From Escherichia coli (GTDB lineage: Bacteria; Pseudomonadota; Gammaproteobacteria; Enterobacterales; Enterobacteriaceae), in assembly GCF_024298765.1 (NCBI RefSeq), contig NZ_CP101210.1: a DNA stretch of 64,000 bases; one strand, 5' to 3'. The position numbers and the translations under genes are program-made. Position 1 is the first letter of the stretch. Each line of letters starts with the position of its first letter. This document shows positions 10,806 to 40,035 of the stretch, one piece after another. Below the pieces are notes generated by a model, which did no database searches, was not told the origin of the DNA, and saw only the letters and a list, made by a program, of their open reading frames with translations.

Positions 10806-10819
10806 ACCATTGCCATTTT

Positions 10820-12867: not shown

Positions 12868-12884
12868 ATTATTTATTCCTCGAC

Positions 12885-13106
12885 TTAACTCGACTTATTT
12901 GATAGCTGGGCACTATTTATTGCGTCATTGAGTTTTTCTGCTGCTTCATCAATAAGTGACAACAGGCCATAAGCAATATTTGCATCTTCATTGTCATTTA
13001 TGCAATCAAGCCACATATTTAATATTGCTTTTGCTGAATTATTTAAAGTTAATGAACTTTCTGCACATGCTAACAATTTAAAAAAGACTTCCCGTTCTGT
13101 ATTCAT
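12885..13106 (-). CDS. hypothetical protein
   Basis: 73-aa ORF in a tightly packed small-gene operon. Confidence 0.4.
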   Translation of the reverse strand: MNTEREVFFKLLACAESSLTLNNSAKAILNMWLDCINDNEDANIAYGLLSLIDEAAEKLNDAINSAQLSNKSS

Positions 13107-13298
13107 TTAATCCCCCACCAGCTTACTTTCTTCCTCAATCAAAAAACTAGCGACACTTCCCGAAAGACGCGCCAGTAGGCTCGCCAGTGCGGATATATCA
13201 GCATCTGTAATTTTGTTCGGGTATACCTCAAGAAGGCGGCAAATAATTTCTGTCTGGTGCGCACGTTCAGCGGCTTCGTGTAATGTGATTTCCTGCAT
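13107..13298 (-). CDS. hypothetical protein
   Basis: 63-aa ORF; its stop abuts the next ORF. Confidence 0.4.
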   Translation of the reverse strand: MQEITLHEAAERAHQTEIICRLLEVYPNKITDADISALASLLARLSGSVASFLIEEESKLVGD

Positions 13299-13483
13299 TA
13301 ATGCACCTCTTTTAATTCATACACTGCTGAAATAATGACTTGTGATAAGCCATATTCTGATGATTCGCTTCTCACCGCAGCAATAGCCGTCTGAACATTA
13401 ACAGCCTTCACATTCTGAGCGATACCAATTGTGTGGCCTATTGGGTTAACAGCTCGGGCAAATACACGGAAGGTTTTAAGCAT
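13298..13483 (-). CDS. hypothetical protein
   Basis: 61-aa ORF, first gene of the leftward operon. Confidence 0.4.
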   Translation of the reverse strand: MLKTFRVFARAVNPIGHTIGIAQNVKAVNVQTAIAAVRSESSEYGLSQVIISAVYELKEVH

Positions 13484-13863
13484 GACTCACTCCCTGGCGG
13501 ATTTTTGCAGCGAATACAGCAACACAACCGGACGGGCAACGGCTACGCGCTTCGCGTTCCGTCCAGGCGGTTACGTGGATGATTTGAGATTCTCCGGCAC
13601 TCAGTGCCAGAAAACGCCACACAAAGGCCGTTTGTGTGTGTACAAGGTGTGGTATATGATTTACAGCAACCATAACGGCTCCTAGTTTACGTTGTTGGTT
13701 AGACGCCCCGTATGTGTTCCCAGCACTGCGGGGCGTTGCTCTTTGTATTTCAACAATCCTTTCGGTGTGTTTCATGTTATGAGCGCATGAAACACACGTC
13801 AAGGCTTTTTGTATTTCTTTTTTTGTGTATACTGAAACACACCGATGATTAGGAGTTTCAGAA

Positions 13864-14169
13864 ATGGCAACGGCTAACAAAAACGCAAAATCACAACTGA
13901 CAACTGTCAGAGTCCCACTAGATGTTATGCAAGGGATGGAATCCGTTAAGCTGGACGGTGAAAGCAATGCCGGATTTATCGTAACCGCCATGCGCGGTGA
14001 AATCGCCCGCCGCCAGGCAGAAGGAAGCGGAGAAAATCCCCTCGTGTCTTCACTGGATGCCTTAGCTAAGGTCGAACAAATCGGCATCAAGGCAGCGGAG
14101 GAAATCGGGCAACTCGTAGCCGTCGCTCGTGAAGAACTCCAGCGGCGTAAAGCCAAAGAATCTGAATAA
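13864..14169 (+). CDS. putative ribbon-helix-helix transcriptional regulator
   Basis: 101 aa; AGGAG RBS; TVRVPLDVMQGMESV...NAGFIVTAMRGEI fits a beta-strand plus two helices; divergent from the small-gene operon. Confidence 0.5.
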   Translation: MATANKNAKSQLTTVRVPLDVMQGMESVKLDGESNAGFIVTAMRGEIARRQAEGSGENPLVSSLDALAKVEQIGIKAAEEIGQLVAVAREELQRRKAKESE

Positions 14170-14519
14170 TTAGTATCAGCGCCGTGATGTGAGTAACTAC
14201 GGCGCATTGCTATGTAAATACTGGCAATAAACAGAAAAGGTAGTTCTACTCCGAATAATTTTATCTGACACTACTCCTGAACTAACATGCGCTTATCTTA
14301 CAGGATATAAATATAAATCCATAAAATCACGATTAAATAAAGTCGCTCCAAACATAAACCACACCCAACGCTTAACAAGATAGCAACAAACAGGTAAATA
14401 ACTTGCAGAAATATTTATCGCAAGGATTATCATTATTAATGACAAATCACTTTACCAAGTCATTCCCCTCTCTTATCATAAAGAGAAAGTAATAAATAAG
14501 TTAAGGGAGTTAGAATGCT

Positions 14520-15056
14520 ATGAATCTAAAAAAAATAGCCACAAACACAAAAAACAAGATAACAGAAACATTTAATAAACTTATATTAGAGGCATCTAAA
14601 ACCCCCACACAAGATGAAATTAAAATACTTGAGAGAAGGAGTAAGAAGTTTAATTACTCCTTTTTCTCATACGCAGTCACAGGAGCTATAATAGTTTTTT
14701 GCTCTCAACCATTAATTAAATACGCAAACCCAATACTTATTTTATTGAGTGGTCTGTTACTGTCTATCATCATTATCATTCTCAGAATGATTTATATTTC
14801 ACAAGCGAATGCATCATGGACAACCAAAAAACGCTCACATGTACTAGTTCATTTTCTTTCTGCATGTTTCATAGCATCAACATTGACGTTGCTATATCAG
14901 GCTTACGATAATAACATCACACACAAATTGTACTGTAAAAATATACAACAACTTATTGAAAAAAGGATAAAAACAGAAAAAAACATCAGCATATTCAGTG
15001 GGATGCAATGCACCCCGGTATATGATTACTCTTTATTTGGATTTAATCTCTTATAA
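14520..15056 (+). CDS. hypothetical membrane protein, AT-rich cargo
   Basis: 178 aa; three hydrophobic segments (AVTGAIIVFCSQPLI, ILILLSGLLLSIIIIIL, VLVHFLSACFIASTLTLL); GGGAG RBS; AT-rich. Confidence 0.55.
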   Translation: MNLKKIATNTKNKITETFNKLILEASKTPTQDEIKILERRSKKFNYSFFSYAVTGAIIVFCSQPLIKYANPILILLSGLLLSIIIIILRMIYISQANASWTTKKRSHVLVHFLSACFIASTLTLLYQAYDNNITHKLYCKNIQQLIEKRIKTEKNISIFSGMQCTPVYDYSLFGFNLL

Positions 15057-15067
15057 AGAATGTTATT

Positions 15068-15101
15068 ACTGATTTGAGTACAAATTCTCAAATCAGTAAT
15101 T
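15068..15101. terminator. perfect 13-bp inverted repeat hairpin between convergent genes
   Basis: ttactgatttgag-N8-ctcaaatcagtaa. Confidence 0.5.
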
Positions 15102-15125
15102 CATAATATTTTATTCTGAGATAAT

Positions 15126-15353
15126 TTAAACTACCCACTCACCTCGAATCCATGCCTGCACTTCTGAAAGACGATATGCAACAGCAGTGGAACCAATCTT
15201 GATCCGCTTAGGAAATTTTCCTTCCTTCTCCAGCTTCCAGCGTGTGCTGTTCGCAAGAGTGGTTAGCTCCCGACATTCTTTCTCACGGATCATTCGGTCA
15301 ATGTTAGGAATGTACTCCAGACCCTTTTTATCAACAATTGCCATTTTTTTCAT
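15126..15353 (-). CDS. alpA: AlpA-family regulator/excisionase-like protein
   Basis: ORF 15126..15362; ...LTTLANSTRWKLEKEGKFPKRIKIGSTAVAYRLSEVQAWI typical of AlpA; directly follows int. Confidence 0.65.
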   Translation of the reverse strand: MKKMAIVDKKGLEYIPNIDRMIREKECRELTTLANSTRWKLEKEGKFPKRIKIGSTAVAYRLSEVQAWIRGEWVV

Positions 15354-15354
15354 G

Positions 15355-16590
15355 TTAACCAACCTTTTGTTTGAGGATTGTCACTTTTGAATCAGCACCT
15401 GCGATGCTATTGAGATATGTAGTCCAGAGTTCCAGAGCATCCAGTTTTTTAGCCATAAACTTACTCCGGTTGTAAACACCTGCCACGCCAGGTAGCGCAT
15501 GGCCTAACAGTTGTTCTACTACATAAAATTCAACACCGAGATCACTTAGATGAGTAGATAGCGTTCTTCTAAGGTCGTGTAGTGACCATTGTTTTTCATG
15601 GCCCAAACGTTTACCGATTTTCCCCCCAATCTTGCTTACGCTTTCTCTAATTCGCAGACTTCCCAGCACATAACCAGTATGTTTTGTCTCTTCGTGAACA
15701 TCCGTTACCCACTGTCGTAGAATTTCAGGTACTGGTCTGACGATTTCAACACCAGTTTTTGAGTGATCTTTTGGTACAGTCCAAACCCAACTTTCGAGAT
15801 CCCATTCGCTCCATTCTGATAATCGGGCTTCACTCATTCGACATCCAAATACTGTACAAAGCACAAACATTTTTCGCGTGTATTCAGACATTAGTTTTAA
15901 ATCAGGCTCGACAAAAATTGCCTTCCAGAGCTGGCCGAGTTCGGCTTCATCCAGAACCCGATCCCGCTTACCTGCAATCTGCCCCACATCACTCATGCGC
16001 AAATCCTTTAAAGCATCACACGTCGCGTACTGGCGTACCCGACAAAAACGAAGAGCTAATTTAGTGTCAGAAAAAACATACGCCGCCATAACTGGTGCAT
16101 TACGTTTAATTCGGTCAAAACAGTCCAGCCATTCATATAGGTGAGTGTCATTTACGGGCAAATGACCGATATAGGGAAAGATATGCTTTCGAAATCTGCC
16201 AAGCGTTACAGCATGAGTTTTACGACGCACCTTACAGTAATTTTCATACCAGTAATTTAGTGCATCCTCCACTGTAACTGGCTTTAAGCGTTCTTCAGCC
16301 TGAATCTTAATCTGGATACGCGGATCACGTTTGTCAGCCAACCAACCACGGCACTCGTCGCGCTTTTCCCTTGCCTGTTTGAGTGACATATCAGGATATT
16401 TACCCAACGTTAGCCAGACCGGAGCAGCCCGGCCACCTGCTAACCTGTAGAAGAAAACAAAGCTCACAGCCCCTTTAGTACTCACACGAATAGAAAGCCC
16501 CTTTCCATCAGCAATGGTGATCTGCTTTTCTCTGGGTTTCCCCAGATATCCTTTAAGCGCTTTGTCGCTCAGTTTGTTCTCGCCAGCCAT
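15355..16590 (-). CDS. int: tyrosine integrase, P4-like
   Basis: ORF 15355..16641; probable start MAGENKLSDKALKG...; C-terminal catalytic region with HDLRRT and GH motifs. Confidence 0.85.
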   Translation of the reverse strand: MAGENKLSDKALKGYLGKPREKQITIADGKGLSIRVSTKGAVSFVFFYRLAGGRAAPVWLTLGKYPDMSLKQAREKRDECRGWLADKRDPRIQIKIQAEERLKPVTVEDALNYWYENYCKVRRKTHAVTLGRFRKHIFPYIGHLPVNDTHLYEWLDCFDRIKRNAPVMAAYVFSDTKLALRFCRVRQYATCDALKDLRMSDVGQIAGKRDRVLDEAELGQLWKAIFVEPDLKLMSEYTRKMFVLCTVFGCRMSEARLSEWSEWDLESWVWTVPKDHSKTGVEIVRPVPEILRQWVTDVHEETKHTGYVLGSLRIRESVSKIGGKIGKRLGHEKQWSLHDLRRTLSTHLSDLGVEFYVVEQLLGHALPGVAGVYNRSKFMAKKLDALELWTTYLNSIAGADSKVTILKQKVG

Positions 16591-16605
16591 TTTTAGCCCC
16601 AAAAA

Positions 16606-16640
16606 GCAATACAAGCTGCAATACAGAGATGATTGCAACA
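16606..16640. repeat. GCAATACA repeats near right end (candidate arm-type integrase sites)
   Basis: aagcaatacaagctgcaatacagagatgattgcaacaca between int start and the right junction. Confidence 0.45.
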
Positions 16641-16752
16641 CACAGATAACGAGGAAAATTCAGTGAAAGCACCAGATAAACTTATTCTTTATTATCAAAA
16701 GATTAAGTGTAAAAACCAGCAACTACACGAAAGCCTCAGAAAGCCATGCTAA

Positions 16753-16998
16753 GTGCTTGGGTTTGACATATCCCGGCGTAAATTCAGAGGTGGAGCCGCC
16801 ACGGGAACGGATAACCTCACCGGAAACAATCGGCGAAACGTACAGCGCCATGTTTACCAGTCCCGGAATTTGTGAGAGATAGACTTTCTCCGTAGTGAAG
16901 GGATAGCTCTCACGGAAAAAGAGACGCAGAAACAGCGGATCAAACTTAAATTTCTGCTCATTTGCCGCCAGCAGCTGGGCGGTTGTGTACATCGACAT
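16753..16998 (-). pseudogene. E: major capsid protein E, N-terminal ~90 codons; frame runs into the insertion and stops at 16723
   Basis: ORF 16723..17025: MSMYTTAQLLAANEQKFKFDPLF...GYVKPKH then LAWLSEAFV* from element DNA. Confidence 0.9.
16754..16763. repeat. right junction direct repeat (att core copy) TGCTTGGGTT
   Basis: Identical 10-mer at 5870..5879. Confidence 0.8.
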
Positions 16999-17053
16999 AA
17001 AAAAATCCCGTAAAAAAAGCCGCACAGGCGGCCTTTAGTGATGAAGGGTAAAG

Positions 17054-17386
17054 TTAAACGATGCTGATTGCCGTTCCGGCAAACGCGGTCCGTTTTTTCG
17101 TCTCGTCGCTGGCAGCCTCCGGCCAGAGCACATCCTCATAACGGAACGTGCCGGACTTGTAGAACGTCAGCGTGGTGCTGGTCTGGTCAGCATCAACCGC
17201 CAGAATGCCAACGGCAGCACCGTCGGTGGTGCCATCCCACGCAACCAGCTTACGGGTGGAGGTATCCAGCATCAGCGGGGTCATTGCAGGCGCTTTCGCA
17301 CTCAATCCGCCGGGCGCGGTTGCCGTATGTGCCGGGTCACTGTTGCCCAGCGGCTGGTAATGGGTAAAGGTTTCTTTGCTCGTCAT
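17054..17386 (-). CDS. D: head decoration protein D
   Basis: [31 protein letters not shown]..., lambda gpD. Confidence 0.9.
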
Positions 17387-17395
17387 AAACATCCC

Positions 17396-18695
17396 TTACA
17401 CTGGTGTGTTCAGCAAATCGTTAACGGCATCAGATGCCGGGTTACCTGCAGCCAGCGGTGCCGGTGCCCCCTGCATCAGACGATCCAGCGCAGTGTCACT
17501 GCGCGCCTGTGCACTCTGTGGTGCAGCTGCCAGAATGCGGCGGGCCGTTTCCACGGTCATACCGGGGGTTTCGGCCAGCACGCGTGCCTGTTCTTCGCGT
17601 CCGTGAGCCTCCTCACAGTTGAGGATCCCCATAATGCGACTGTTTTCTGCCGCAACCGCTGCGGTGATCTGCGCGTTCACGTCCGGCTGCGCCGCGCTGG
17701 CGTTCTCGCCCTCCGTCGCTTGCACCACGCCAGTAACGTCAGCCTGCGAAGCAGTGGCTGAAACAGTTGTTGATTGAGTCTCTTTGGTCATTCGCCCTCC
17801 TGAGAGACGGGATTTACGTGCATCCAGTGCATCACGCATGACGGTGATCGCATCGGTACTGTTAACAAGTTCATCAGCCAGTCCGGCATCAATGGCCTCC
17901 TGACCGCTGTACACTGCAGCCTCGGTATCCAGCACAGCCTGCACGGACAGGCCGGTATATGCCGACACCTTCTGTGCAAACATCTGGCGGGTTGCGTCCA
18001 TCCGGGACTGCAGTGTCTCCCGGACGTCATCCGGAAGATGGCTGTAGGGATTGCCATCCACCTTATGGCTGCCGCTGTAAATCAGCGTGATTTCCACACC
18101 CTGTTTCTCCAGGGCAGCACCGTAATTACTGTGAGCCATCATGACGCCGATGGAGCCTGTCCGGGCGGTCTGCGTGACCAGACGCCGGGAGGCGGCACTG
18201 GCAAGCAGCTGACCTGCACTGCAGTTCATGTCGTTGGCCAGCGCCCATACCGGTTTTATGTCACGCACACGGGCGATGATGTCAGCGCAGTCAAATGCCC
18301 CCGCCACCATTCCGCCTGGCGTGTCCATATCGAGCAGAATGCCGTCCACCATCGGGTCGCTGGCAGCCTGTTGCAGACGGGCGATAATGCCGTTGTAACC
18401 GGTCATCCCCGAGTACGGCTGCAGCGCCCGCGTCCGGCTGACCAGCGTGCCGGACACCGGCAGCACGGCGATGCCGTTCATGACCTGATAACTGCGGGCC
18501 TGTCGTGGTCCGTCATCATCACCGGATAATGCCAGCGTCGCGAGTGCCTCCTGGGCAGTCAGGCTGTCGCCGGACACCGCATCCGTCAGGCGGCTGATCC
18601 CAAGCTGGCCTGCAAGCGCACAAAAGAAAACCCGCGCATAGGCGGGTTCAAGCATCAGCGGCTCATTAAAGGCCATGCTGGCAATATGCGGGAGA

Positions 18696-18715
<20 letters not shown>
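17396..18715 (-). CDS. C: head maturation protease C (with nested scaffold Nu3 frame)
   Basis: ORF 17396..18850; start MTAELRNLPHIASMAFNEP... gives 439 aa like lambda gpC. Confidence 0.9.
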
Positions 18716-22396
<3,681 letters not shown>

Positions 22397-22422
<26 letters not shown>

Positions 22423-22942
22423 TCAGCAACCCCGGTATCAGTTCATCCAGCGCGGCTGCTTTGTTCATAGCTTTGATGATATCCCGTTTCAGGAAATCAA
22501 CATGTCGGTTTTCCAGTTCCGGAAAACGCCGCTGCACCGACAGGGGGATCCCGTCGAGAATACTGGCAATTTCACCTGCGATCCGCGACAGCACGAAAGT
22601 ACAGAATGCGGTTTCCACCACTTCAGCTGAGTCTCTGGCATTCTTCAGTTCCTGTGCGTCGGCCTGCGCACGCGTAAGTCGATGGCGTTCGTACTCAATA
22701 GTCCCTGGCTGCAGATCTGTCTCGCTGGCCTGCCGCAGTTCTTCAACTTCCCGGCGCAGCTTTTCGTTCTCAATTTCAGCATCCCTTTCGGCATACCATT
22801 TTATAACGGCGGCAGAGTCATAAAGCACCTCATTACCCTTGCCACCGCCTCGCAGAACGGGCATTCCCTGTTCCTGCCAGTTCTGAATGGTACGGATACT
22901 CGCACCGAAAATGTCAGCCAGCTGCTTTTTGTTGACTTCCAT
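22397..22942 (-). CDS. nu1: terminase small subunit Nu1
   Basis: 181 aa, matches lambda Nu1 as recalled. Confidence 0.95.
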
Positions 22943-22959
22943 TGTTCATTCCACGGCCA

Positions 22960-23150
22960 AAAACAGAGAAAGGAAACGACAAAGGCCCAAAAGTTCGTTT
23001 TCAGCACCTGTCGTTTCCTTTCTTTTCAGGGGTTATTTTAAATAAAAACATTAAGTTACGACGAAGAAGAACGGAAACACCTTAAACCGGAAAATTTTCA
23101 TAAATAGCAAAAACCCGCGAGGTCGCCGCCCCGTAACCTGTCGGATCGCC
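22960..23150 (-). other. prophage cos site (cosB R/IHF elements plus cosN); cohesive-end sequence GGGCGGCGACCT at about 23120..23131
   Basis: aaaacccgcgaggtcgccgccccgtaacctgtcggatcgcc is the reverse complement of lambda cosN with flanks as recalled. Confidence 0.85.
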
Positions 23151-23330
23151 GGAAAGGACCCGTAAAGTGATAATGATTATCATCTACATATCACAACGTG
23201 CGTGGAGGCCATCAAACCACGTCAAATAATCAATTATGACGCAGGTATCGTATTAATTGATCTGCATCAACTTAACGTAAAAACAACTTCAGACAATACA
23301 AATCAGCGACACTGAATACGGGGCAACCTC

Positions 23331-23525
23331 ATGTCAACGAAGAACAGAACCCGCAGAACAACAACCCGCAACATCCGCTTTCCTAACCAAATGATTGAAC
23401 AAATTAACATCGCTCTTGAGCAAAAAGGGTCCGGGAATTTCTCAGCCTGGGTCATTGAAGCCTGCCGTCGGAGACTAACGTCAGAAAAGAGAGCATATAC
23501 ATCAATCCAGAGTGATGATGAATAA
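23331..23525 (+). CDS. hypothetical protein (lambda orf64-like)
   Basis: 64-aa ORF between cos and bor, as in lambda. Confidence 0.6.
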   Translation: MSTKNRTRRTTTRNIRFPNQMIEQINIALEQKGSGNFSAWVIEACRRRLTSEKRAYTSIQSDDE

Positions 23526-23886
23526 ACATCCCGGTTTCTTCCACCATCGCACCGGAAAAGCGACTATGAGGGTAACCCTGCGTCTGTCAGCACAGTAAAA
23601 CCCGGTGTGCATCGTTTTTGATTATTCCCGCACACTCACGCAGAAGGAATTCCCCGTCGGGCTACGGTCATGGTTAATGCGGGAATACGGCGACGATACA
23701 GCGCAGCTAAAAGGGTAATGGACAGAAAGAGCGGTTTATTTCATTCCACAGGATTCTGAGTGCCCCCCCCTCCTCCAATAGGCTGAGCATCCACCTATAT
23801 AGTTTTAATTTTCATCAATCCATTTAACTATCGTTTAATTGTTGTCACATAGGATTCTGCCGTTTTTAACAATGCAGGATAATAAG

Positions 23887-24180
23887 ATGAAAAAAATGTT
23901 GTTTTCTGCCGCTCTGGCAATGCTTATTACAGGATGTGCTCAACAGACGTTTACTGTTGGAAACAAACCGACAGCAGTAACACCAAAGGAAACCATCACC
24001 CATCATTTCTTCGTTTCGGGAATTGGACAGGAGAAAACTGTTGATGCAGCCAAAATTTGTGGCGGCGCAGAAAATGTTGTTAAAACAGAAACCCAGCAAA
24101 CATTCGTAAATGGATTTCTCGGTTTTATTACTTTAGGCATTTATACTCCGCTGGAAGCGCGTGTGTATTGCTCACAATAA
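23887..24180 (+). CDS. bor: Bor lipoprotein (serum resistance)
   Basis: ORF 23839..24180; start MKKMLFSAALAMLITGCAQQTFTV... with lipobox; lambda Bor. Confidence 0.9.
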   Translation: MKKMLFSAALAMLITGCAQQTFTVGNKPTAVTPKETITHHFFVSGIGQEKTVDAAKICGGAENVVKTETQQTFVNGFLGFITLGIYTPLEARVYCSQ

Positions 24181-24211
24181 TTGCATGAGTTGCCCATAGA
24201 TATGGGCAGCT

Positions 24212-24673
24212 CTATCTGCACTGCTCATTAATATACTTCTGGGTTCCTTCCAGTTGTTTTTGCATAGTAATCAGCCTCTCTCTGAGGGTGAAATAATCCC
24301 GTTCAGCGGTGTCTGCCAGTCGGGGGGAGGCTGCATTATCCACGCCGGAGGCGGTGGTGGCTTCACGCACTGACTGACAGACTGCTTTGATGTGCAACCG
24401 ACGACGACCAGCGGCAACATCATCACGCAGAGCATCATTTTCAGCTTTCGCATCAGCTAACTCCTTCGTGTATTTTGCATCGAGCGCAGCAACATCACGC
24501 TGACGCATCTGCATGTCAGTAATTGCCGCGTTCGCCAGCTTCAGTTCTCTGGCATTTTTGTCGCGCTGGGCTTTGTAGGTAATGGCGTTATCACGGTAAT
24601 GATTAACAGCCCATGACAGGCCGACGATGATGCAGATAACCAGAGCGGAGATAATCGCGGTTACTCTGTTCAT
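24212..24673 (-). CDS. Rz: i-spanin Rz
   Basis: ORF 24212..24685; N-terminal TM helix then coiled coil; directly downstream of endolysin. Confidence 0.85.
24271..24453 (-). CDS. Rz1: o-spanin Rz1 lipoprotein, embedded in the +1 frame of Rz
   Basis: 60 aa with lipobox VVGCTS and proline-rich stretch [15 protein letters not shown]. Confidence 0.8.
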
Positions 24674-25167
24674 TGCTGACCCCACAAACAGATTTCACGC
24701 TCAATCTCACGACGAGTCATGAGACCTTTCCATTGCTTACCGCCAGCATATGTCCAGCGACGTAGCTGATCACATGCGCCTTTAATATCACCCTGGTTTA
24801 TTTTGCGAAGAAGCGTCGATGTTCTGAAATTGCCAGCACCCACGTTGTAGACGAACGAGTAAAGAGCGCCGCGCGTTGTTTCCGGTATATCGACTTTGAT
24901 GTACGGGTTAATTTGTCTGGCGACAGTGGCAAGGTCTTTATTCAGGAGGGCTTTGCACTCTGCTTCGGTATACGTTTTACCGGGAATGATGTCTTTTCCT
25001 GTATGCCCGTGACATACAGTCCATACACCAACTATGTCTTTGTAAGGATTATGTCTCACACCTTCCAGACCATCGTTACCACTTGGGCCAGTGATTAATA
25101 CAGATGCTATAGCAATAGCCCCGCCACCAATAGCAGCAGCAACAGCTTTTCGTAATGATGGAGGCAT
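24670..25167 (-). CDS. R: SAR endolysin (phage-21 R-type lysozyme)
   Basis: 165 aa; N-terminal Gly/Ala-rich signal-anchor-release segment then lysozyme domain; resembles DLP12 RrrD / R21. Confidence 0.85.
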
Positions 25168-25382
25168 TATCCACCTCTCGCAGCCTTGCGCTTATCTTCT
25201 TTAATCTTGAAATAAAGGTTTGTCAGGTACGTCAGCAGGCCAAATACCAGGCTACCCAGCACTCCAATTGCCGCCCACTGTGAGGGCGTGACTTTATCTA
25301 GCAGCTGTAAAAACCAGTACCCGGCACTACCTGCTGAGGTGCCATAGGCGACACCCGTTGTTAACTTATCCATGGATTTCAT
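25167..25382 (-). CDS. S: pinholin (S21-type class II holin)
   Basis: 71 aa; [20 protein letters not shown]...[35 protein letters not shown] closely parallels S21 / EssD. Confidence 0.85.
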
Positions 25383-25503
25383 AACCCCACCTCGCAGACA
25401 AAGCGGGTGTAAATTGAGGGAATACTACGAAACGTAACAGACTCGGAGTCAGTGAATAACTCAGGTATTGGGTTATCAGCTAATATCGAGACTCAAAAAA
25501 TGG

Positions 25504-25527
25504 AAAAACCCGCTCGACGGCGGGTTT
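25504..25527 (-). terminator. rho-independent terminator upstream of the lysis cassette (tR'-like)
   Basis: Minus strand aaacccgccgtcgagcgggttttt. Confidence 0.5.
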
Positions 25528-25954
25528 AAGCTGTGTGACGAAGTAACCACTCTTAACAGCATAACCAATTTTTTACGTACGTAAACCACTAAATGATATT
25601 TGCGAGAATGCTACCGAGTATTGAAAACACCACTACAAATACATAAGCAAATCTCAACAAATAACCAACAAATAATTTCCAGTGTTATTTTTAGCTGGTT
25701 TAAATTGAACCTTCAAATTATAGAGCACTTATAAATAACAGCCGTTAATATAAATTGGCTAACAGATTTATTTTTATTCAGCCAAGAGCCATGAATAGGA
25801 TTCGATAGAAAAAAGTTCAGATAAAAATAGAGATCTACTTCACAAATCAAACGAGAAACCAAAACTTACATCTTGAAATAATCACATTGATTAGATGAAT
25901 ATTTATCGCGCAGTGACATCATTTTTTAATAATAGTTCAAAAAAAGGGCTCACG

Positions 25955-27052
25955 ATGAAAAAATTAACAGTGGCAATTTCTGCTGTAGCTGCATCAGTAC
26001 TGATGGCGATGTCTGCTCAGGCAGCTGAAATTTATAATAAAGACAGTAACAAGCTGGATCTGTACGGGAAAGTTAATGCTAAGCACTACTTCTCCTCTAA
26101 TGATGCAGATGATGGTGATACTACTTATGCCCGTCTTGGCTTCAAAGGTGAAACCCAAATCAACGATCAACTGACTGGTTTCGGTCAGTGGGAATATGAA
26201 TTCAAAGGCAACCGCGCTGAATCTCAAGGTTCCTCCAAAGATAAAACCCGTCTTGCCTTCGCTGGCCTGAAATTCGGTGACTACGGCTCCATCGATTACG
26301 GCCGTAACTACGGTGTAGCATACGACATCGGTGCGTGGACTGACGTCCTGCCAGAATTCGGTGGTGACACTTGGACTCAAACCGACGTGTTCATGACTCA
26401 ACGTGCAACTGGTGTTGCAACCTATCGTAACAACGACTTCTTTGGTCTGGTTGATGGTCTGAATTTTGCTGCTCAGTACCAAGGCAAAAACGATCGTAGC
26501 GATTTCGATAACTACACTGAAGGTAACGGTGATGGCTTCGGTTTCTCTGCTACCTATGAATACGAAGGATTCGGTATCGGTGCAACTTATGCGAAATCTG
26601 ATCGTACCGACACTCAAGTTAATGCAGGGAAAGTTCTTCCTGAAGTATTTGCTTCCGGTAAAAATGCAGAAGTTTGGGCCGCAGGTCTGAAATATGACGC
26701 TAACAACATTTACCTGGCCACTACCTATTCTGAAACCCAGAATATGACTGTATTTGCTGATCACTTCGTTGCTAATAAAGCCCAAAACTTCGAAGCTGTT
26801 GCACAATATCAGTTCGATTTCGGTCTGCGTCCGTCCGTTGCTTACCTGCAATCTAAAGGTAAGGATCTTGGAGTATGGGGCGATCAGGACTTAGTCAAAT
26901 ATGTTGATGTAGGTGCAACCTATTACTTCAACAAAAATATGTCTACTTTCGTTGATTACAAAATCAACCTGCTTGACAAAAATGACTTCACTAAAGCACT
27001 CGGTGTAAGCACTGATGACATCGTTGCTGTAGGTCTGGTTTACCAGTTCTAA
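25955..27052 (+). CDS. outer-membrane porin, OmpC/NmpC/Lc family (lysogenic-conversion gene)
   Basis: ORF 25895..27052; start [23 protein letters not shown] signal peptide; [17 protein letters not shown]... and C-terminal VGLVYQF typical of general porins; sits between Q and S on the opposite strand as in DLP12/PA-2. Confidence 0.9.
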
Positions 27053-27189
27053 TCTGATTACGAAAAAGATATGTTGCGGGAGGCGTTGCCTCCCCAACAT
27101 ATAAGTGGCTCCCTCAAGCCACTTCCTTTAGAAGCACAACCTTGCTTCTAACTATATAAACCTTCTGTTATATATTACCCTTTATTTTT

Positions 27190-27215
27190 GGGGGCGTCTC
27201 AACGCCCCATTTTTA
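27190..27215 (+). terminator. rho-independent terminator after porin gene
   Basis: gggggcgtctcaacgcccc followed by attttt. Confidence 0.6.
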
Positions 27216-27241
27216 ATAATTTTTAGTAAACAATTGGCATA

Positions 27242-27640
27242 TTAATTAGAGTTATTAACAACGATATCCATCTCTAACCGGATATCTAATGCCATTAACA
27301 TCCCTTCAATTATACCCTCAGCCTTCTGTAACCTTTTCCCGATATAACCATCAGAGCAGCAATGCTTACCTGCCAGTGACATGAATGTCATACCGACTAC
27401 ATAATAATCTACTAATAAATCGTGCAAATCGCTGTTGTTCTTTTTCAGACGGGCCATGCACCCGCAAATGATCATCGCGTCATCGTCACAACATTGCGGG
27501 CGAGATTTTACTTTTGAAGTAATTAATCCCTTAAAACCGGCGGCAATGGACGACCAGGTCACATCTTCATGATTATTAGCCGCCCACGCTCCCCAACGCT
27601 CAAGAACCATCTGAATATCACGCATCAACTTACTCCACAA
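27242..27640 (-). CDS. Q: late antiterminator Q (phage-82 / DLP12 QuuD type)
   Basis: 132 aa; closely resembles DLP12 QuuD as recalled; Cys-rich putative zinc site; upstream of the lysis genes. Confidence 0.8.
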
Positions 27641-27847
27641 AAATCAGACCAGAACGCCAATTACAAGCAAAAATCAACAAAACAGTATTAGTTGATTGTT
27701 ATCTCTGACTTCATACTCCTGCTCCTGTCAGGGTTTTGGCGTAATTCTTCAGTATTCGGTAATCGGTCAAAACAGAACCGGGGAAACGATATAAGCGCAG
27801 ACGCCCCCAGCGGTGGCGAAGAAGTTCTGCCATATTAAACTCAAACA

Positions 27848-28210
27848 TCATTCATTCCCCATTTCGGTGATGGTCAGTTCCAGCCTCCCACCTTTGGTAA
27901 CAGGCATCTTCACAACGCGGTAATCAACGACCTGAGCATCATCCAGCCAGAAACCTGCTTTGGTGAGTGCGTCAAAAGAGGCTTTTTGCAGATTATCCAG
28001 GTCACGGCGACGGCGATCCGGCATGTGGCACTCAATGCGGATTTTCACAGGCATAGCCAGGCCGATATCCAGCATTGCGTTTTTAATGATTCGGGCGACG
28101 TTATCGCAGTATGCCTGCCCCTCTGCGCTAACGTGCGTGCGCCCGCGATTATGGCGGTAATAGCGATTATTGCTCGGAGGCCAGGGTAATGTGATGCTGT
28201 AGGTATTCAC
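27848..28210 (-). CDS. rusA: Holliday junction resolvase RusA
   Basis: 120 aa [34 protein letters not shown]..., RusA family. Confidence 0.9.
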
Positions 28211-28229
28211 GCCTTAATAACCCCCTCTT

Positions 28230-28424
28230 TCAGCCAGATAACCTGTGTTCTCGCCATACCTTCCAGCGCGCATTCTTTTGCATATGCAGCATCGACTTGC
28301 TTGGCATGCCCTTTACCGGCAATCTTCTGTATGCGCTAAACCTAGATAGAATCCACTCTGTGCACATTGAAGCCCGCTCTATGCTTCCTTTCAGGTATTG
28401 AAGGGATTGAGATGGGCTAAGCAT
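28230..28424 (-). CDS. NinF-like ORF, N-terminus conserved, remainder divergent (possible remnant)
   Basis: [18 protein letters not shown]... matches start of lambda NinF as recalled, then loses the Cys-rich motif. Confidence 0.35.
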
Positions 28425-28800
28425 TATTGGCCTCCTGCATCAGGAGAAAGACAATCATGGCGGCGCGGAGAGGTCTGGCATCAAATATTGGGCTTACGCC
28501 TTTTGCATCCACACACCATTCAGTTAACTGGTCTAAGATAGAAATCCTGTATTTCTCAATAATCGGCCATGAAGCGCTCGGATCATTGCAGTAGTCAGGC
28601 AAATGATTTAATGGCTCAAAAGTTGTATCAGCATTTCCGTAATACCATTTGTTGGTGTTATTCCCTGATGTTTCCGGTTTACTTGCCCAAAGGCCTTTAA
28701 AAATTATGTCTCCTACCATTCTGTTAATTTCAAAATCACTTAACTGTGAATAATCCATTGTCATTTCCTCGCACGATATCTTAGCCACCGGATATCCCAC
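28417..28800 (-). CDS. nin-region hypothetical protein
   Basis: 127-aa ORF in the nin operon on the same strand as its neighbours; family not recognised. Confidence 0.5.
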
Positions 28801-28937
28801 AGGTGAGCTGTGTAATTGAAGGTTTTTACGTCAGATTCTTTTGGGATTGGCTTGCGTTTATTTCTGGAGCGTTTCGTTGGAAGGTATTTGCAGTTTTCGC
28901 AGATGATGTCGGTGAAACTTCGTCGCTGTCGCCTCAT
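28761..28937 (-). CDS. ninE: NinE
   Basis: ORF 28761..29027; internal start [58 protein letters not shown] matches lambda NinE. Confidence 0.8.
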
Positions 28938-29461
28938 GCCGCCCTCCTGACGCCCTGCCCGATCGCCATCAATGCCGCTTTGGATACGGTAGTAAACATC
29001 CGTCGAGGACTGATGAACGGTCGCCAAATCAGCAGCATGGAGCCTTTGCTGTTTCCCTTCTTCTCCAGCCCTGTCGATGGTTCGATAAAATTAATCCGTC
29101 CATCAGTGATAATGCGAACTTCGTCGACACTCTCCAGAGCCTTGCTGAACCATCCGACTGACATATCCTCTGGCACAAGCATAACTACCGTCTGTCGCTG
29201 TTGTATGCACTGCTCAGCGGCTTTTTCCACCCACGGCCTGATATTGCTGTACGGTGGGTTATTCCAGATTGCACCGTGGCTTACCCACTCAGAATTGAGC
29301 GCGTCGTCGGCCTCAGTTAGCCAGTGAGCACACAGAGCATTTTTGTCGCTCGCTGCAGAATCCAGCCAGAATCCAAACTCAATATCCAGTGCATCAAAAA
29401 GCCAAAGCGGCGTTTGCCAGCAGTCCTTGTCGTGTGCTGGCGTATTTGATTTGATAGTCAT
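28934..29461 (-). CDS. phage DNA N6-adenine methyltransferase (orphan)
   Basis: ORF 28934..29521; probable start [25 protein letters not shown]...; NPPY catalytic motif. Confidence 0.75.
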
Positions 29462-29898
29462 GCAGCCCGATCTCCCCATCTCGCTTTCCACTCCAGAGCC
29501 AGTCTCGCTTCGTCTGACCACTTAACGCCACGCTCTGTACCGAATGCCTGTATAAGCTCTAATAGCTCCGCAAATTCGCCTACACGCATCCTGCTGGTTG
29601 ACTGGCCTATTACCACAAAGCCATTCCCGGCAAGGTTAGGAACAACATCCTGCTGCTTTAATGCTGCGGTAAACACACACTTCCAGCTTTCTGCATCCAG
29701 CCAGCGACCATGCCATTCAACCTGACGAGAGACGTCACCTAAGCAGGCCCATAGCTTCCTGTTTTGGTCTAAGCTGCGGTTGCGTTCCTGAATGGTTACT
29801 ACGATTGGTTTGGTTGGGTCTGGAAGGATTTGCTGTACTGCGTGAATAGCGTTTTGCTGATGTGCTGGAGATCGAATTTCAAAGGTTAGTTTTTTCAT
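29458..29898 (-). CDS. ninB: NinB (Orf-family recombination mediator)
   Basis: ORF 29458..29916; start MKKLTFEIRSPAHQQNAIHAVQQILPDPTKP..., lambda NinB. Confidence 0.9.
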   Translation of the reverse strand: MKKLTFEIRSPAHQQNAIHAVQQILPDPTKPIVVTIQERNRSLDQNRKLWACLGDVSRQVEWHGRWLDAESWKCVFTAALKQQDVVPNLAGNGFVVIGQSTSRMRVGEFAELLELIQAFGTERGVKWSDEARLALEWKARWGDRAA

Positions 29899-29971
29899 GA
29901 CTTCCCTCTCCCCCAAATAAAAAGGCCTGCGATTACCAGCAGGCCTGTTATTAGCTCAGTGATGTAGATGG

Positions 29972-30262
29972 TCATCTTTTAACTCCATATACCGCCAATA
30001 CCCGTTTCATCGCGGCACTCTGGCGACACTCCTTAAAAATCAGGTTCGTGCTCATCTTTCCTTCCCGTTCTTCCTTGGTAGCAAACCGGTAATACACCGT
30101 TCGCCAGACCTTACCTTCGATAACCAGAAGACCTGCCCGTGCCATTTTAGCCGCGGCCTGATTTATGCTGGTTACTGTTGCGCCTGTTAGCGCGGCAACG
30201 TCCGGCGCACAGAAGCTATTATGCGTCCCCAGGTAATGAATAATTGCCTCTTTGCCCGTCAT
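29972..30262 (-). CDS. ren: Ren
   Basis: 96 aa MTGKEAIIHYLGTHNSFCAPDVAALTGATVTSINQ..., lambda Ren. Confidence 0.9.
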   Translation of the reverse strand: MTGKEAIIHYLGTHNSFCAPDVAALTGATVTSINQAAAKMARAGLLVIEGKVWRTVYYRFATKEEREGKMSTNLIFKECRQSAAMKRVLAVYGVKR

Positions 30263-30960
30263 ACACTTGCTCCTTTCAGTCCGAACTTAGCTTTGATTTC
30301 TGCGATCTTCGCCAGAGCCTGTGCACGATTTAGAGGTCTACCGCCCATGACAGGAAGTTGTTTTACTGGTTCAGGGATCGCCTCACCACGGTTAATTCTC
30401 GCAGTCATATGGACAAGCTCATCTGCGGCCTTACGGCGTAATTCCGCATCAGTAAGCGCATTGGCCCGCATGTTCTGATACAGGTTGGTAACCAGCCAGT
30501 AGTGCGCGTTTGATTTCCACGGATAAGACTCCGCATCCGGATACAGGCCTCGCTTCCGGCAATACTCGTAAACCATATCAACCAGCTCGCTGACGTTTGG
30601 CAGTCCGGCGATAACGGATGCTTCTTCCCGGCACCATGCAACAAACTGCCCGGGTGATGGCAGAAATGGTCGATTCTGCCGACGGGCTACGCGCATTCCT
30701 GCGTTAACCTGTTCCATTGTGGTGATCCCGTTTTCCCGGAAAGCCAGCACCCACTGGCGGCGGATTTCGTTCAGTTCGTTCTGGTCCCGGTTAGCCAGGC
30801 TCGCCGGGAAAGTTGCCAGTAACTGGCTGAACACACCATTGATGATCTGCGCTACCTGTTGTACCTGCGGCTTTTCGTCGTACTGTTCCGGCATGTTGTT
30901 GGCGATCCGACGCATCTGCTCACGGTCAAAGTTAACCATCTGTGCGGCGATGTTTTTCAT
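30259..30960 (-). CDS. P: replication protein P (DnaB loader)
   Basis: 233 aa MKNIAAQMVNFDREQMRRIANNMPEQYDEK..., lambda P. Confidence 0.95.
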   Translation of the reverse strand: MKNIAAQMVNFDREQMRRIANNMPEQYDEKPQVQQVAQIINGVFSQLLATFPASLANRDQNELNEIRRQWVLAFRENGITTMEQVNAGMRVARRQNRPFLPSPGQFVAWCREEASVIAGLPNVSELVDMVYEYCRKRGLYPDAESYPWKSNAHYWLVTNLYQNMRANALTDAELRRKAADELVHMTARINRGEAIPEPVKQLPVMGGRPLNRAQALAKIAEIKAKFGLKGASV

Positions 30961-31856
30961 AAATCCACCCCGTAAATCCAGTCAGTGTTTGTCAGGTCGA
31001 GTTTTGGTTTGCTGGCTGTCACGCCTGCCTGTTGCTTGTTACGGTTGATTTCGAGCTGGGTCCACTTGTCGCGGAGTTTGGCCGGACTCAGCACGTTACC
31101 GGACCAGAAGTTGTCCTGGCAGGCCCAGCGGAAAAGCACACACATATCGCGGTGGTTACGTCCGTCACGTTCACGCATCAGGCGGATATCGTTAGCCCAC
31201 CCAGCAAAATTCGGTTTTCTGGCTGATGGTGCGATAGTCTTCACCATGTCAAACATCCACTCTGCGGCGGTCAGGTCTTCTGCTGTCCCCCACTTGCTGC
31301 CGCTCTGAATTGCAGCATCCGGTTTAACCACAGAAAGATCGTTTTCTGGCTGGTCAGAGGATTCGCCAGAATTCTCTGACGAATAATCTTTTCTTTTTTC
31401 TTTTGTAATAGTGTCTTTTGTGTCCCCCTGTTTTGAGGGATAGCAATCCCCCAATTTGAGGGATGTTTTATCCCTCGTTTTAGGGGATTGTCCCTCGTTT
31501 TGAGGGATACACCATTCTGAGATGTTTTTATTTGGTCCAAACATGCCGCCTTGCTGCTTGATAATATTCATTCTGACGAGTTCTAACTTGGCTTCATTGC
31601 ACCGTTTGACAGGTAACTTTGTAATCTCGCTAAGTTGAGAATCGGTGATTCTGTCCATTGGTTTATTCCACCCATAGGTTTTACGCAGAATGGCAAGCAG
31701 CACTTTAAACTGTCGCTTGGTCAGATCTGCGCCCGAATAAGCCTCAAGCAGCATATTTGATAGTCTGGCGTAACCATCATCGAGATCTGCCACATTACGC
31801 TCCTGTCCGGCAAAGTTACCTCTGCCGAAGTTGAGTATTTTTGCTGTATTTGTCAT
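30957..31856 (-). CDS. O: replication initiator O
   Basis: 299 aa MTNTAKILNFGRGNFAGQERNVADLDDGYARLSNMLLEAY..., lambda O. Confidence 0.95.
   Translation of the reverse strand: MTNTAKILNFGRGNFAGQERNVADLDDGYARLSNMLLEAYSGADLTKRQFKVLLAILRKTYGWNKPMDRITDSQLSEITKLPVKRCNEAKLELVRMNIIKQQGGMFGPNKNISEWCIPQNEGQSPKTRDKTSLKLGDCYPSKQGDTKDTITKEKRKDYSSENSGESSDQPENDLSVVKPDAAIQSGSKWGTAEDLTAAEWMFDMVKTIAPSARKPNFAGWANDIRLMRERDGRNHRDMCVLFRWACQDNFWSGNVLSPAKLRDKWTQLEINRNKQQAGVTASKPKLDLTNTDWIYGVDL
31425..31520 (-). repeat. ori-lambda iterons inside gene O
   Basis: Four ~19-bp repeats tccctcaaaacgaggga / tcccctaaaacgaggga / tccctcaaattggggga variants, followed by an AT-rich tract. Confidence 0.85.
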
Positions 31857-31888
31857 AATGACTCCTGTTGATAGATCCAGTAATGACC

Positions 31889-32182
31889 TCAGAACTCCAT
31901 CTGGATTTGTTCAGAACGCTCGGTTGCCGCCGGGCGTTTTTTATTGGTGAGAATCGCAGCAACTTGTCGCGCCAATCGAGCCATGTCGTCGTCAACGACC
32001 CCCCATTCAAGAACAGCAAGCAGCATTGAGAACTTGGGAATCCAGTCTCTCTTCCACCTGCTGATCTGCGACTTATCAACTCCCACAGCTTCCGCTGTCT
32101 TCTCAGTTCCAAGCATTGCGATTTTGTTAAGCAACGCACTCTCGATTCGTAGTGCCTCGTTGCGTTTGTTTGCACGAACCAT
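31889..32182 (-). CDS. cII: transcriptional activator CII
   Basis: ORF 31889..32242; start MVRANKRNEALRIESALLNKIAMLGTEK... gives 97 aa, lambda CII. Confidence 0.95.
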   Translation of the reverse strand: MVRANKRNEALRIESALLNKIAMLGTEKTAEAVGVDKSQISRWKRDWIPKFSMLLAVLEWGVVDDDMARLARQVAAILTNKKRPAATERSEQIQMEF

Positions 32183-32257
32183 ATGTAAGTATTTCCTTAG
32201 ATAACAATTGATTGAATGTATGCAAATAAATGCATACACCATAGGTGTGGTTTAATT

Positions 32258-32275
32258 GGATGCCCTTTTTCAGGG
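32258..32275 (-). promoter_or_regulatory. nutR boxB hairpin
   Basis: Minus strand gccctgaaaaagggc between cro and cII. Confidence 0.7.
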
Positions 32276-32300
32276 CGGGGATGGGTAAGAGCGGGGTTAT

Positions 32301-33315
<1,015 letters not shown>

Positions 33316-33442
33316 TAGGAAGTAAGTTTTATGTTGACGGCACAGTCAACTTGGCATAGATTAATTAAACCAAGCCCAGCCCCGTTCGCAGACAATTGTT
33401 AATATCTGCATAACGGCTCTGGGCTATTTTTTTGGGACTCTT

Positions 33443-34300
33443 ATGAAGAAAGCAGCAATTTTAATTGATGCGGGTTTTTTCATGCAGCGTGTTCATGCTA
33501 CGCATCGTAAACACTTCGCCGAGCATGAACTGACTGCGCAATGCATAATGAAAGTAATATGGTCAATGGTTCTTTCCCATCTTAATGGAAAACGTCAATC
33601 ACAAGAACGTAGGGAACCGCTTGAGCTTTATAGAATTTACTTCTATGACTGTCCACCACTCGACATTCAAACACGCCTTCCACTTCCTGAGCCTGGCAAT
33701 AAGACGCCTGGTCGCAAGAATTTCAAACTCGAAAAATCATATATTCTGAGAACGGAGCTGCATGAAGAGTTAAGAAAAACTCGAAAAACAGCCTTAAGAT
33801 TAGGGAATCTTGTTGATAATAAGCGATGGCAACTAACTACATTCTCCCTTGATGCTCTGATGAAAGGAACGAAAAAATGGGATGAACTGACAAATGATGA
33901 TTTTTACTATGACATCAAACAAAAACAAGTTGATATCAAGCTAGGGATGGATATCACGACTTTAGCTTATGAAAAACTTGTTGATGTAATTGTCCTTGTT
34001 GCTGGGGACTCAGACTTTGTGCCTGCCGCCAAACACGCCAGAATTAAAGGTATTGATTTTATTCTTGATCCACTAAGACAGAATGTTACCCCATCACTGT
34101 CAGAGCACATTGATGGAGTTCAGTCATACAGCTTGATATCAGGACTTGCCGATGCTTTACATGTTGAGCCAGACCCGGCACCTGACTGGTGGGAAGATCG
34201 AAAAAAAGGCAAGCCTAGGGGAAAAAACAATAGCGGTAAACGCAGGTATGGAAACACTCAAGCTGAGTCTGCAAAGAAACATCAAAGAAATAAACGATAA
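33443..34300 (+). CDS. NYN-domain (LabA-like, PIN-like) putative nuclease occupying the rexA-rexB position
   Basis: 285 aa; MKKAAILIDAGFF... and VIVLVAGDSDFVPA motifs typical of NYN domains; basic C-terminal tail; downstream of cI on the same strand; not similar to RexA or RexB. Confidence 0.6.
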   Translation: MKKAAILIDAGFFMQRVHATHRKHFAEHELTAQCIMKVIWSMVLSHLNGKRQSQERREPLELYRIYFYDCPPLDIQTRLPLPEPGNKTPGRKNFKLEKSYILRTELHEELRKTRKTALRLGNLVDNKRWQLTTFSLDALMKGTKKWDELTNDDFYYDIKQKQVDIKLGMDITTLAYEKLVDVIVLVAGDSDFVPAAKHARIKGIDFILDPLRQNVTPSLSEHIDGVQSYSLISGLADALHVEPDPAPDWWEDRKKGKPRGKNNSGKRRYGNTQAESAKKHQRNKR

Positions 34301-34308
34301 TCCCATCA

Positions 34309-34336
34309 ACCCGGCCACCGAGCCGGGTTTTCTTTG
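34309..34336 (+). terminator. rho-independent terminator after the cI-NYN operon
   Basis: cccggccaccgagccgggttttctttg. Confidence 0.6.
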
Positions 34337-34781: not shown

Positions 34782-35679
<898 letters not shown>

Positions 35680-35848
35680 TTAAAAGACAGGCATACTAAT
35701 AAACACTGCACTGTGTATTTATTCCAACGAGTGAATACACGGAGCAATGTCGCTCGTAACTAAACAGGAGCCGACTTGTTCTGATTATTGGAAATCTTCT
35801 TTGCCCTCCAGTGTGAGGGCGATTTTTTATCTATGAGGATATGAATAG

Positions 35849-36217: not shown

Positions 36218-36289
36218 GTGCGGCTTTACCGCATACCAATAACGCTTCACTCGAGGCGTTTTTCGTTATGTATAAATAAGGAGCACACC

Positions 36290-36430
36290 ATGCAATATGC
36301 CATTGCAGGGTGGCCTGTTGCTGGCTGCCCTTCCGAATCTTTACTTGAACGAATCACCCGTAAATTACGTGACGGATGGAAACGCCTTATCGACATACTT
36401 AATCAGCCAGGAGTACCCAAAAATGGATAA
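36290..36430 (+). CDS. cIII: CIII (FtsH inhibitor), apparently 8 codons shorter than lambda CIII
   Basis: [46 protein letters not shown] then stop, inside ORF 36218..36430. Confidence 0.8.
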   Translation: MQYAIAGWPVAGCPSESLLERITRKLRDGWKRLIDILNQPGVPKNG

Positions 36431-39905: not shown

Positions 39906-40035
39906 CTGGACATGCAGCAATCCTCGACATGTGCTGTGGCAGTCGCATGTTCTGGTTAGATAAGAATGACGAACGGGCGAGATAAGCGATCGGTTAAGTG
40001 CTATAGTAATGCGCTTTTGTATTTATGGAGTGAAT

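Follow-up and report, generated by a model that had tools for sequence, protein, structure and literature searches.

The segment at positions 24212–28424 of a 64,000-nucleotide (nt) stretch of the Escherichia coli chromosome (NCBI RefSeq assembly GCF_024298765.1, contig NZ_CP101210.1; the whole stretch is called the window here) belongs to a lambda-like prophage that carries a phage satellite in its capsid gene E. It contains the genes for late control and lysis of this helper phage. Very probably the segment is the ordinary cassette for late control and lysis of a natural, temperate, lambda-like phage that belongs to the mEp332 lineage and is integrated at the lambda attachment site. An earlier note on this DNA, which was made from the sequence alone, had proposed that the helper is a new hybrid. 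Our data demonstrate that the cassette is already known and common, and that the helper is an mEp332-like relative of lambda, not a new hybrid.

The finding named beforehand as refuting a new mosaic was an end-to-end alignment of the segment with a single known lambdoid phage. Phage mEp332 (PV340541), a viable, plaque-forming lambdoid phage with lambda immunity, provides this alignment with 100% coverage and 98.6% identity. Collinearity extends over 16754–33311 (16.5 kb, from the head genes to cI) at 98.4% identity and includes the NinF stub, the filler and the ybcO remnant that mark a junction in the nin region (described below). The integrase and the attachment region match at 99.3%. mEp332 is different in the gene at the rexAB position, in the surroundings of N and sieB, and in part of the ea region (33312–34309, 35100–35697, 39373–40889), and its gene E contains no satellite. 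Eighty per cent or more of the segment was found in 32 phage records and in 2113 of 5426 complete E. coli genomes, and dozens of chromosomes carry it with 100% identity. The scar at the nin junction is present in 583 of the 5426 genomes and in phages ev099 (100%), ev017, ev207 and mEp332. Five proteins were looked up, and exact copies of each are present on at least 1000 contigs in public data.

The prophage lies on the minus strand at the lambda attachment site, with the int end at about 42444, followed by ybhC. The statement of the earlier note that head, terminase, recombination and immunity genes match lambda was correct: proteins D, C, B, W, A, Nu1, NinB, Ren, P, O, CII, Cro, CI, N, Gam, Bet, Exo, Xis and Int are 97–100% identical to those of lambda, and blastn gave 97–98.5% nucleotide identity across the head, tail, cos, replication and immunity regions. 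Also the claimed departure of the nin-to-lysis stretch from lambda was seen, since blastn against lambda revealed zero nucleotide similarity in 24674–28763 and in 28931–29457, while the remainder is lambda-like. In a tblastn search of the whole window, lambda NinC, NinD, NinF, NinG, NinH, NinI, Q, S, R and RexAB were unmatched. Chance is no concern, because the similarities amount to 95–100% identity across kilobases. RusA, Q, pinholin and signal-anchor-release (SAR) endolysin, which had been listed for this region, were confirmed on the minus strand by Pfam and by protein identities. All phage genes of the segment are located on this strand, and a porin gene alone is opposed to them. This porin gene (25955–27052) and a promoter and terminator (25585–25495) had not been listed, and Rz lies outside the substitution. 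The Pfam assignments (PF03245, PF06085, PF00959, PF04971, PF00267, PF06530, PF05866 and PF10765) are far above the cut-off.

The late antiterminator Q (27242–27625, minus strand) had been labelled 82/QuuD-type. The second part of this label stands, since Q is 100% identical to QuuD of K-12, and the first part does not. Three Q families are distinguished: Q21 (PF06530), Q-lambda (PF03589) and Q82 (PF06323) (PMC9388147). Q of the window matched PF06530 (E = 4e-53; 178.8 bits with a cut-off of 26) and no other Q family, and Q21 itself matches PF06530 at E = 9e-25. No match at E ≤ 0.01 was obtained to PF06323, the family defined by Q82 (this comparison to Q82 is by profile alone, not pairwise). 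Similarly, Q had no match to PF03589, which was matched by lambda Q as a control, and shares 13% identity with lambda Q. Using phmmer, residues 13–92 aligned to the solved structure of Q21 (PDB 6P18/6JNX, E = 7e-7), with an overall identity of 23%. The match to PF06530 only, together with the phmmer link to Q21, rules out the 82-type label, and by these profile matches Q is assigned to the Q21 family and not to the Q82 family. The nearest well-studied relatives are found in Shiga toxin (Stx) phages, with 78% identity for 933W and 81% for BP-4795. The entry "PA2" in the collection, with a Q of 78% identity, stands for a phage from strain PA2, not for the classical PA-2.

A homologue of the late promoter and terminator of these Stx phages is located between the porin gene and the holin gene S (start at 25382). 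The pR′-like promoter (25558–25585, minus strand) consists of a −35 element TTTACG (25585–25580), a 16-nt spacer and a −10 element TATGCT (25563–25558). The tR′-like intrinsic terminator (25495–25527, minus strand), detected by a terminator scan, has a hairpin at 25527–25506 followed by a T-run to 25495. By blastn, the pR′-tR′ stretch of 933W (Y10775, 6587–6668) aligned to 25586–25504 of the window with 77% identity (E = 5e-11), and the corresponding stretch of BP-4795 showed 78% identity (E = 1e-12). The same sequence is present in DLP12 of K-12. From this homology we infer that the late promoter is used and that Q acts at 25585–25558. The pR′ and tR′ annotated in 933W overlap each other and come after Q; the promoter overlaps the last part of the Q gene, and tRNA and stx genes lie behind it. 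Compared to the unit of 933W and BP-4795, Q of the window lacks the last 17 residues and is separated from the promoter by 1.66 kb, which are taken up by the porin and its small-RNA region as a moron. For the SRRz operon of DLP12, a passage in PMC7918800 that cites Rueggeberg 2013 reports control by a Q-type antiterminator. As a separate observation, a stretch of 26–31 nt near the overlap of the head genes B and C (18624–18654, minus strand) matches the tR′ hairpin of 933W and BP-4795 with 90–92% identity, and this match may be due to chance.

The moron encodes an intact OmpC-family porin of the NmpC/Lc type (25955–27052, plus strand; PF00267, E = 6e-157). It is transcribed against the late genes and lies between Q and the 933W-like promoter and terminator. 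In public data the identical protein bears the name "outer membrane porin protein LC / NmpC" and is found on at least 1000 contigs. The homologue in K-12, nmpC, is split by IS5, whereas the copy in the window is intact. The stop codon of the porin gene is followed by four or five strong hairpins within 170 nt (27053–27222, plus strand; −64.2 kcal/mol, z = −8.9), the last part being a terminator detected by the scan (27191–27208 plus a T-run). No Rfam family matched this 3′ region. Following Castillo-Keller 2006, 27053–27222 probably represents IpeX, a small-RNA locus of DLP12. The existence of IpeX is cited in PMC5745476. A main late promoter directly downstream of Q (27241–27065) was considered as well, and this candidate was dropped once the homologue of pR′/tR′ of 933W had been found upstream of S. 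A consensus scan of 27241–27065 on the minus strand did not reveal an acceptable sigma-70 site, and the best pair picked by hand was TTGAGA and TAATAT with a 19-nt spacer. Alignment of the Q-proximal region with 933W, BP-4795 and ev058 revealed no conserved block, and the structured region fits better to the porin 3′ end or to IpeX on the plus strand.

The lysis genes follow downstream of the late promoter. S (25167–25382, minus strand) encodes a pinholin/antiholin of 71 aa, a class II holin, which matches PF04971 ("P21 holin S", E = 2e-35) and is 99% identical to EssD and 85% identical to S21. With its length, the start MKSM (dual start Met1/Met4) and the PF04971 match it has the sequence features of an S21-type pinholin, a type with a length of about 70 aa and two transmembrane helices. 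R (24670–25167, minus strand; PF00959) encodes a SAR endolysin of the R21/RrrD type with 96% identity to both R21 and RrrD, and it matches the PDB entries 4ZPU (RrrD) and 3HDE (R21) with E values of about 1e-107. R21-type SAR endolysins have a Gly/Ala-rich N-terminal signal-anchor-release helix and a T4-lysozyme-type domain with a Glu-8-Asp-5-Thr triad. In R, residues 1–37 are those of R21, the T4-lysozyme-type domain is present, and the triad is formed by E35, D44 and T50, to which we ascribe the catalytic roles known for R21. These features suggest that S acts as a pinholin and R as a SAR endolysin. Rz, the inner-membrane spanin (24212–24673, minus strand; PF03245, E = 3e-54), is 99% identical to Rz of lambda (98.7% by tblastn), 97% to Rz of phage 21 and 96% to RzpD. 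Rz1, the outer-membrane lipoprotein spanin (24271–24453, minus strand; PF06085, E = 3e-20), is 100% identical to Rz1 of phage 21. It is entirely contained within Rz in a different reading frame, the embedded architecture of a two-component spanin. The bor/iss lipoprotein gene (23887–24180, plus strand) adjoins the segment as part of a conserved bor-Rz flank. It is annotated by PGAP as "Iss" in an identical locus, and the protein is 98% identical to Bor of phage 21, 91% to Bor of lambda and 90% to BorD.

The label phage-21-type had been applied to the region, and it holds for S, R, Rz and bor only. The phage 21 lysis cassette shares 94.5% nucleotide identity over 23597–25383 (bor to the start codon of S), with the SAR domain and catalytic triad kept. 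In contrast, phage 21 has two tRNA genes upstream, a pR′ of its own for which the Q-binding element is known, and NinG/Rap instead of RusA, and its Q is the distant relative described above. In a table of identities per 200 nt, R resembles phage 21 and DLP12 to the same degree, and the DNA upstream of bor is closest to phage 21 (94–100%, compared to about 82% for lambda or DLP12). Between cos and bor, at 23543–23832, about 1.1 kb of the lambda interval (46975–48091, with ybcV/ydfO-like and ybcW-like open reading frames) is missing.

On the other side of Q the nin region contains a true recombination scar, as the earlier note had suggested, and alignment to phage L and DLP12 allowed the boundary to be placed. 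In these alignments, homology of the P22/L type reaches down to 28362 and that of the DLP12 type up to 28296, so that the boundary maps to 28297–28361. Next to Q lie ylcG (27711–27851, minus strand; PGAP), a small open reading frame 100% identical to YlcG of K-12, and rusA (27848–28210, minus strand; PF05866, E = 2e-21), which encodes a Holliday-junction resolvase. RusA is 98% identical to K-12 RusA and matches PDB 1Q8R (E = 8e-79). Residues D70, D72, K76 and D91 are all present, and we take D70, D72 and D91 to have the catalytic roles known for RusA. A remnant of 90 nt from the 3′ end of ybcO (DUF1364) follows at 28207–28296 (minus strand), annotated by PGAP as a pseudogene with its N-terminus missing. 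Here 100 of 101 nt are the same as in ybcO/rusA of K-12, and the blastn match to DLP12 stops at 28296. The two homology blocks are separated by a 65-nt filler (28297–28361) that was unmatched in lambda, DLP12, phage 21 and phage L but is conserved in mEp332, ev099 and the 583 genomes.

Beyond the filler lies a stub of ninF (28362–28424, minus strand) with the first 21 codons of the P22/L type, from which the reading frame continues out of frame to 28230. In the resulting 64-codon open reading frame (28230–28424), residues 1–21 alone are shared with the NinF of Salmonella phage L and P22 type in a protein alignment, and three of the four zinc-ribbon cysteines are lost. The statement that a NinF-like frame keeps its N-terminus thus applies to 21 codons, and these are not of the lambda type: lambda NinF has about 57 aa at full length and four zinc-ribbon cysteines, which are not all kept here, lambda NinF was unmatched by tblastn, and a blastn-short search against lambda ninF found nothing. 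Homology to phage L spans NinE, NinX and the start of NinF at 94–95% (94.8%). NinX is of the P22 type (28417–28758, minus strand; PF10765), with 94–95% nucleotide identity to Salmonella phage L and relatives. NinE (28761–28937, minus strand) forms an island of the lambda/21 type (blastn 95% to lambda 42097–42263, tblastn 93%). Beside it lies a gene for a phage N6-adenine methyltransferase (28934–29461, minus strand; PGAP) that replaces NinC-NinD of lambda, and phage 434 carries the same methyltransferase gene at the matching position.

Most of the segment has a close counterpart in DLP12. The late-region order of DLP12 in K-12, ybcO-rusA-ylcG-quuD-nmpC-essD-rrrD-rzpD/rzoD-borD-ylcI-nohD, is also the order in the window, and the identity is 96.7% over 23833–26994 and 99.3% over 26986–28296, with Q and YlcG identical. 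The porin-Q-rusA block (25400–28296) shows about 99–100% identity to DLP12 of K-12 (per 200 nt). Over 23833–28296 the absence of IS5 from the porin gene is the sole structural difference. On the upstream side of the ybcO remnant, NinX, NinE, the methyltransferase and NinB are found in the window, and ybcN-ninE-ybcO in DLP12. The window also lacks ybcV and ybcW, unlike DLP12. In the window the cassette resides within an otherwise complete lambda-like prophage at attB-lambda, DLP12 at argU. The combination of the cassette with a lambda-type Nu1 (99%) already exists in DLP12.

Exchange of this cassette is known from the laboratory. In phage 434B, DLP12 DNA has taken the place of about 5.5 kb of phage 434, and recombinants of lambda and DLP12 are viable. 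Like the prophage in the window, these hybrids are lambdoid phages with Q, late promoter, porin and lysis genes of DLP12, and 434B shares 97.6–98.1% identity with the window over 23132–27860. The laboratory recombinants arose in K-12 cultures, their porin gene is disrupted by IS5 and their crossover is in ylcG; unlike in these recombinants, homology in the window extends through rusA into ybcO. In phage 82 the nin region has the order ybcN-ninE-ybcO-rus, and a passage in PMC4118853 that cites Mahdi 1996 reports rusA and, with 97% identity to that of DLP12, ybcN in this phage. An 82-like character is therefore supported, by literature, for rusA and the neighbouring nin genes, but not for Q.

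As a mechanism we propose that early rightward transcription would cross the nin genes, in which RusA would serve as resolvase in place of Rap, and would lead to synthesis of Q (QuuD). Q would be loaded onto RNA polymerase paused just past the 933W-type late promoter (about 25585–25558), which is 1.66 kb downstream of the Q gene because the porin/small-RNA moron lies in between. The modified polymerase would pass tR′ (25527–25495), transcribe S, R and Rz/Rz1, and then run past cos to the head and tail genes of lambda type, including the satellite in gene E. Considering the homologies of S and R, we infer that lysis follows the route of phage 21. Sec would export the endolysin, which would stay tethered through its SAR helix, depolarisation of the membrane by the pinholin would release it, and the spanins would then break the outer membrane. 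The arrangement may go back to old exchanges, homologous or illegitimate, that took place between lambdoid phages where their flanks are conserved (bor-Rz-cos to one side and the nin genes to the other), and would have been inherited since.

Gene E is split by the satellite (5878–16753), each end of which carries the 10-bp attachment (att) core TGCTTGGGTT. The satellite has the same orientation as the late operon and encodes an integrase, an AlpA-like regulator, a D5-type primase, a single-stranded DNA-binding protein and capsid proteins of the E and D families. Its cos copy and Nu1 homologue are 95–96.5% identical to those of the helper, and cos is of the lambda type. Helper-embedded phage-inducible chromosomal islands (PICIs), including those at site E:Phage_cap_E:80, were described by Tommasini et al. 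2023 (PMC10111431). They measure about 11 kb, are inserted in a late gene of a prophage with their genes for integrase, AlpA-like regulator and primase co-oriented with it, and have a block of 10 identical bp within gene E as well as a copy of cos (PMC10111431). The satellite matches this published type. The satellite's Nu1 (small terminase) homologue at 7026–7797 is full-length (183 aa, PF07471). Its first approximately 112 codons and the adjoining cos are 95–96.5% identical to helper and lambda, and the C-terminal third is unmatched at the nucleotide level. In strain 104, whose satellite differs by 432 bp, the Nu1 gene has merely 64 codons, and a DUF262/HEPN pair is found in place of the cargo gene present in the window (6014–6919, plus strand), a DUF2971 gene assigned by PADLOC to the candidate defence family PDC-S31 (E = 2e-32).

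The junction between satellite and gene E was detected in 172 of the 5426 complete E. coli genomes. From these 172 genomes we sampled four that were chosen for slightly diverged junctions. All four share head genes and cos with the window (16900–23493 at 95.7–98.5%), and none shows similarity to the porin-Q-rusA block (25400–28424). Their late regions are of two other kinds, either Qin-type (ydfT, csp genes, rrrQ, rzpQ) or with tRNA-Ile, tRNA-Arg and IraM, and both of these cassettes contain antiterminators of the Q-lambda family (PF03589). Since the four sampled helpers carry two other cassettes, the late cassette can be exchanged and is no marker of the satellite's helper. This disagrees with the view that the mosaic matters for judging which phage the satellite parasitises. 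The only link between cassette and satellite is positional, as the satellite is co-oriented in the operon switched on by Q. Homology of the head region to the other satellite-bearing helpers stops at 23493, within ylcI, which suggests, from the alignments, a common exchange boundary of these helpers.

Other explanations for the composition of the prophage were considered. The prophage could have recently taken the Q-porin-lysis DNA from a resident cryptic prophage of the DLP12 type, so that the helper would be a newly made, lineage-specific mosaic. The identity of 25400–28296 to DLP12 is indeed above the 92–95% of the neighbouring R gene, and 434B and the lambda x DLP12 recombinants document such replacements. 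However, the same junctions, filler and NinF stub are shared by mEp332, ev099, ev017, ev207 and 583 genomes, collinearity with mEp332 covers the full 16.5 kb between head genes and cI, and the porin gene is intact here but carries IS5 in DLP12 of K-12. It also counts against a recent event that no donor can be shown, because the argU locus of the host is outside the window. We consider such a recent origin quite improbable. An assembly chimera or mis-join that feigns a mosaic is hardly credible: nothing was found in its favour, and the sequence is identical in dozens of independent complete genomes and near-identical in phages sequenced from virions.

It has also been considered that the late cassette is functionally matched to the satellite and that the mosaic defines the parasitised phage. 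The co-orientation of the satellite within a Q-dependent late operon, the proposal that helper late transcription enters the satellite (PMC10111431) and the occurrence of the same composite in more than 20 genomes are in agreement with this idea. The four sampled genomes with the same junction in gene E, all with late regions of the Q-lambda family, and the satellite's own links to its helper, which are the att site in gene E and the cos/Nu1 copy, make it highly improbable. The natural mEp332-like cassette, which we prefer, also has points that weigh against it. Start site, Q-binding element and read-through of tR′ are deduced from 77–78% homology to a 933W annotation that is itself labelled "putative". 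A second promoter/terminator set directly downstream of Q (27241–27065) is possible as an additional start. The comparisons with phage 82 and classical PA-2 rest on the literature, and the tail end of the prophage is outside the window.

Further features were looked for in the segment. No tRNA genes were found in it, in contrast to phages 21 and 933W, Rfam gave no match in it at gathering or E-value threshold, and a repeat search of it revealed short chance matches only. The sole match of the window at the Rfam gathering threshold is the cIII thermoregulator element of lambda (36277–36335, plus strand; 88.5 bits). At the position of rexA-rexB of lambda, beside cI, lies an intact NYN-domain gene for a protein of 285 aa (33443–34300, plus strand) with weak PADLOC matches. 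It is common to phage ev099 and frameshifted in strain 104.

Beyond correct annotation the practical weight of these results is small. The helper is best named mEp332-like with a common DLP12-type cassette, and the right label for its Q is Q21-family or Q933W-like. The probable target promoter of Q upstream of S, at a distance from the Q gene, is relevant to induction studies of the prophage or of the satellite. The specificity of the satellite for its helper should be sought in gene E, cos and terminase and not in the nin-to-lysis module. With Q uncoupled from its promoter and the satellite in the late operon, a swappable Q cassette might set timing or level of expression of the satellite integrase and capsid genes; we regard this as unlikely, and from the sampled helpers with different Q cassettes it follows only that several such cassettes are tolerated by the satellite. 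If it were true, exchange of cassettes among lambda-headed helpers would be a way of retuning the relationship between helper and satellite.

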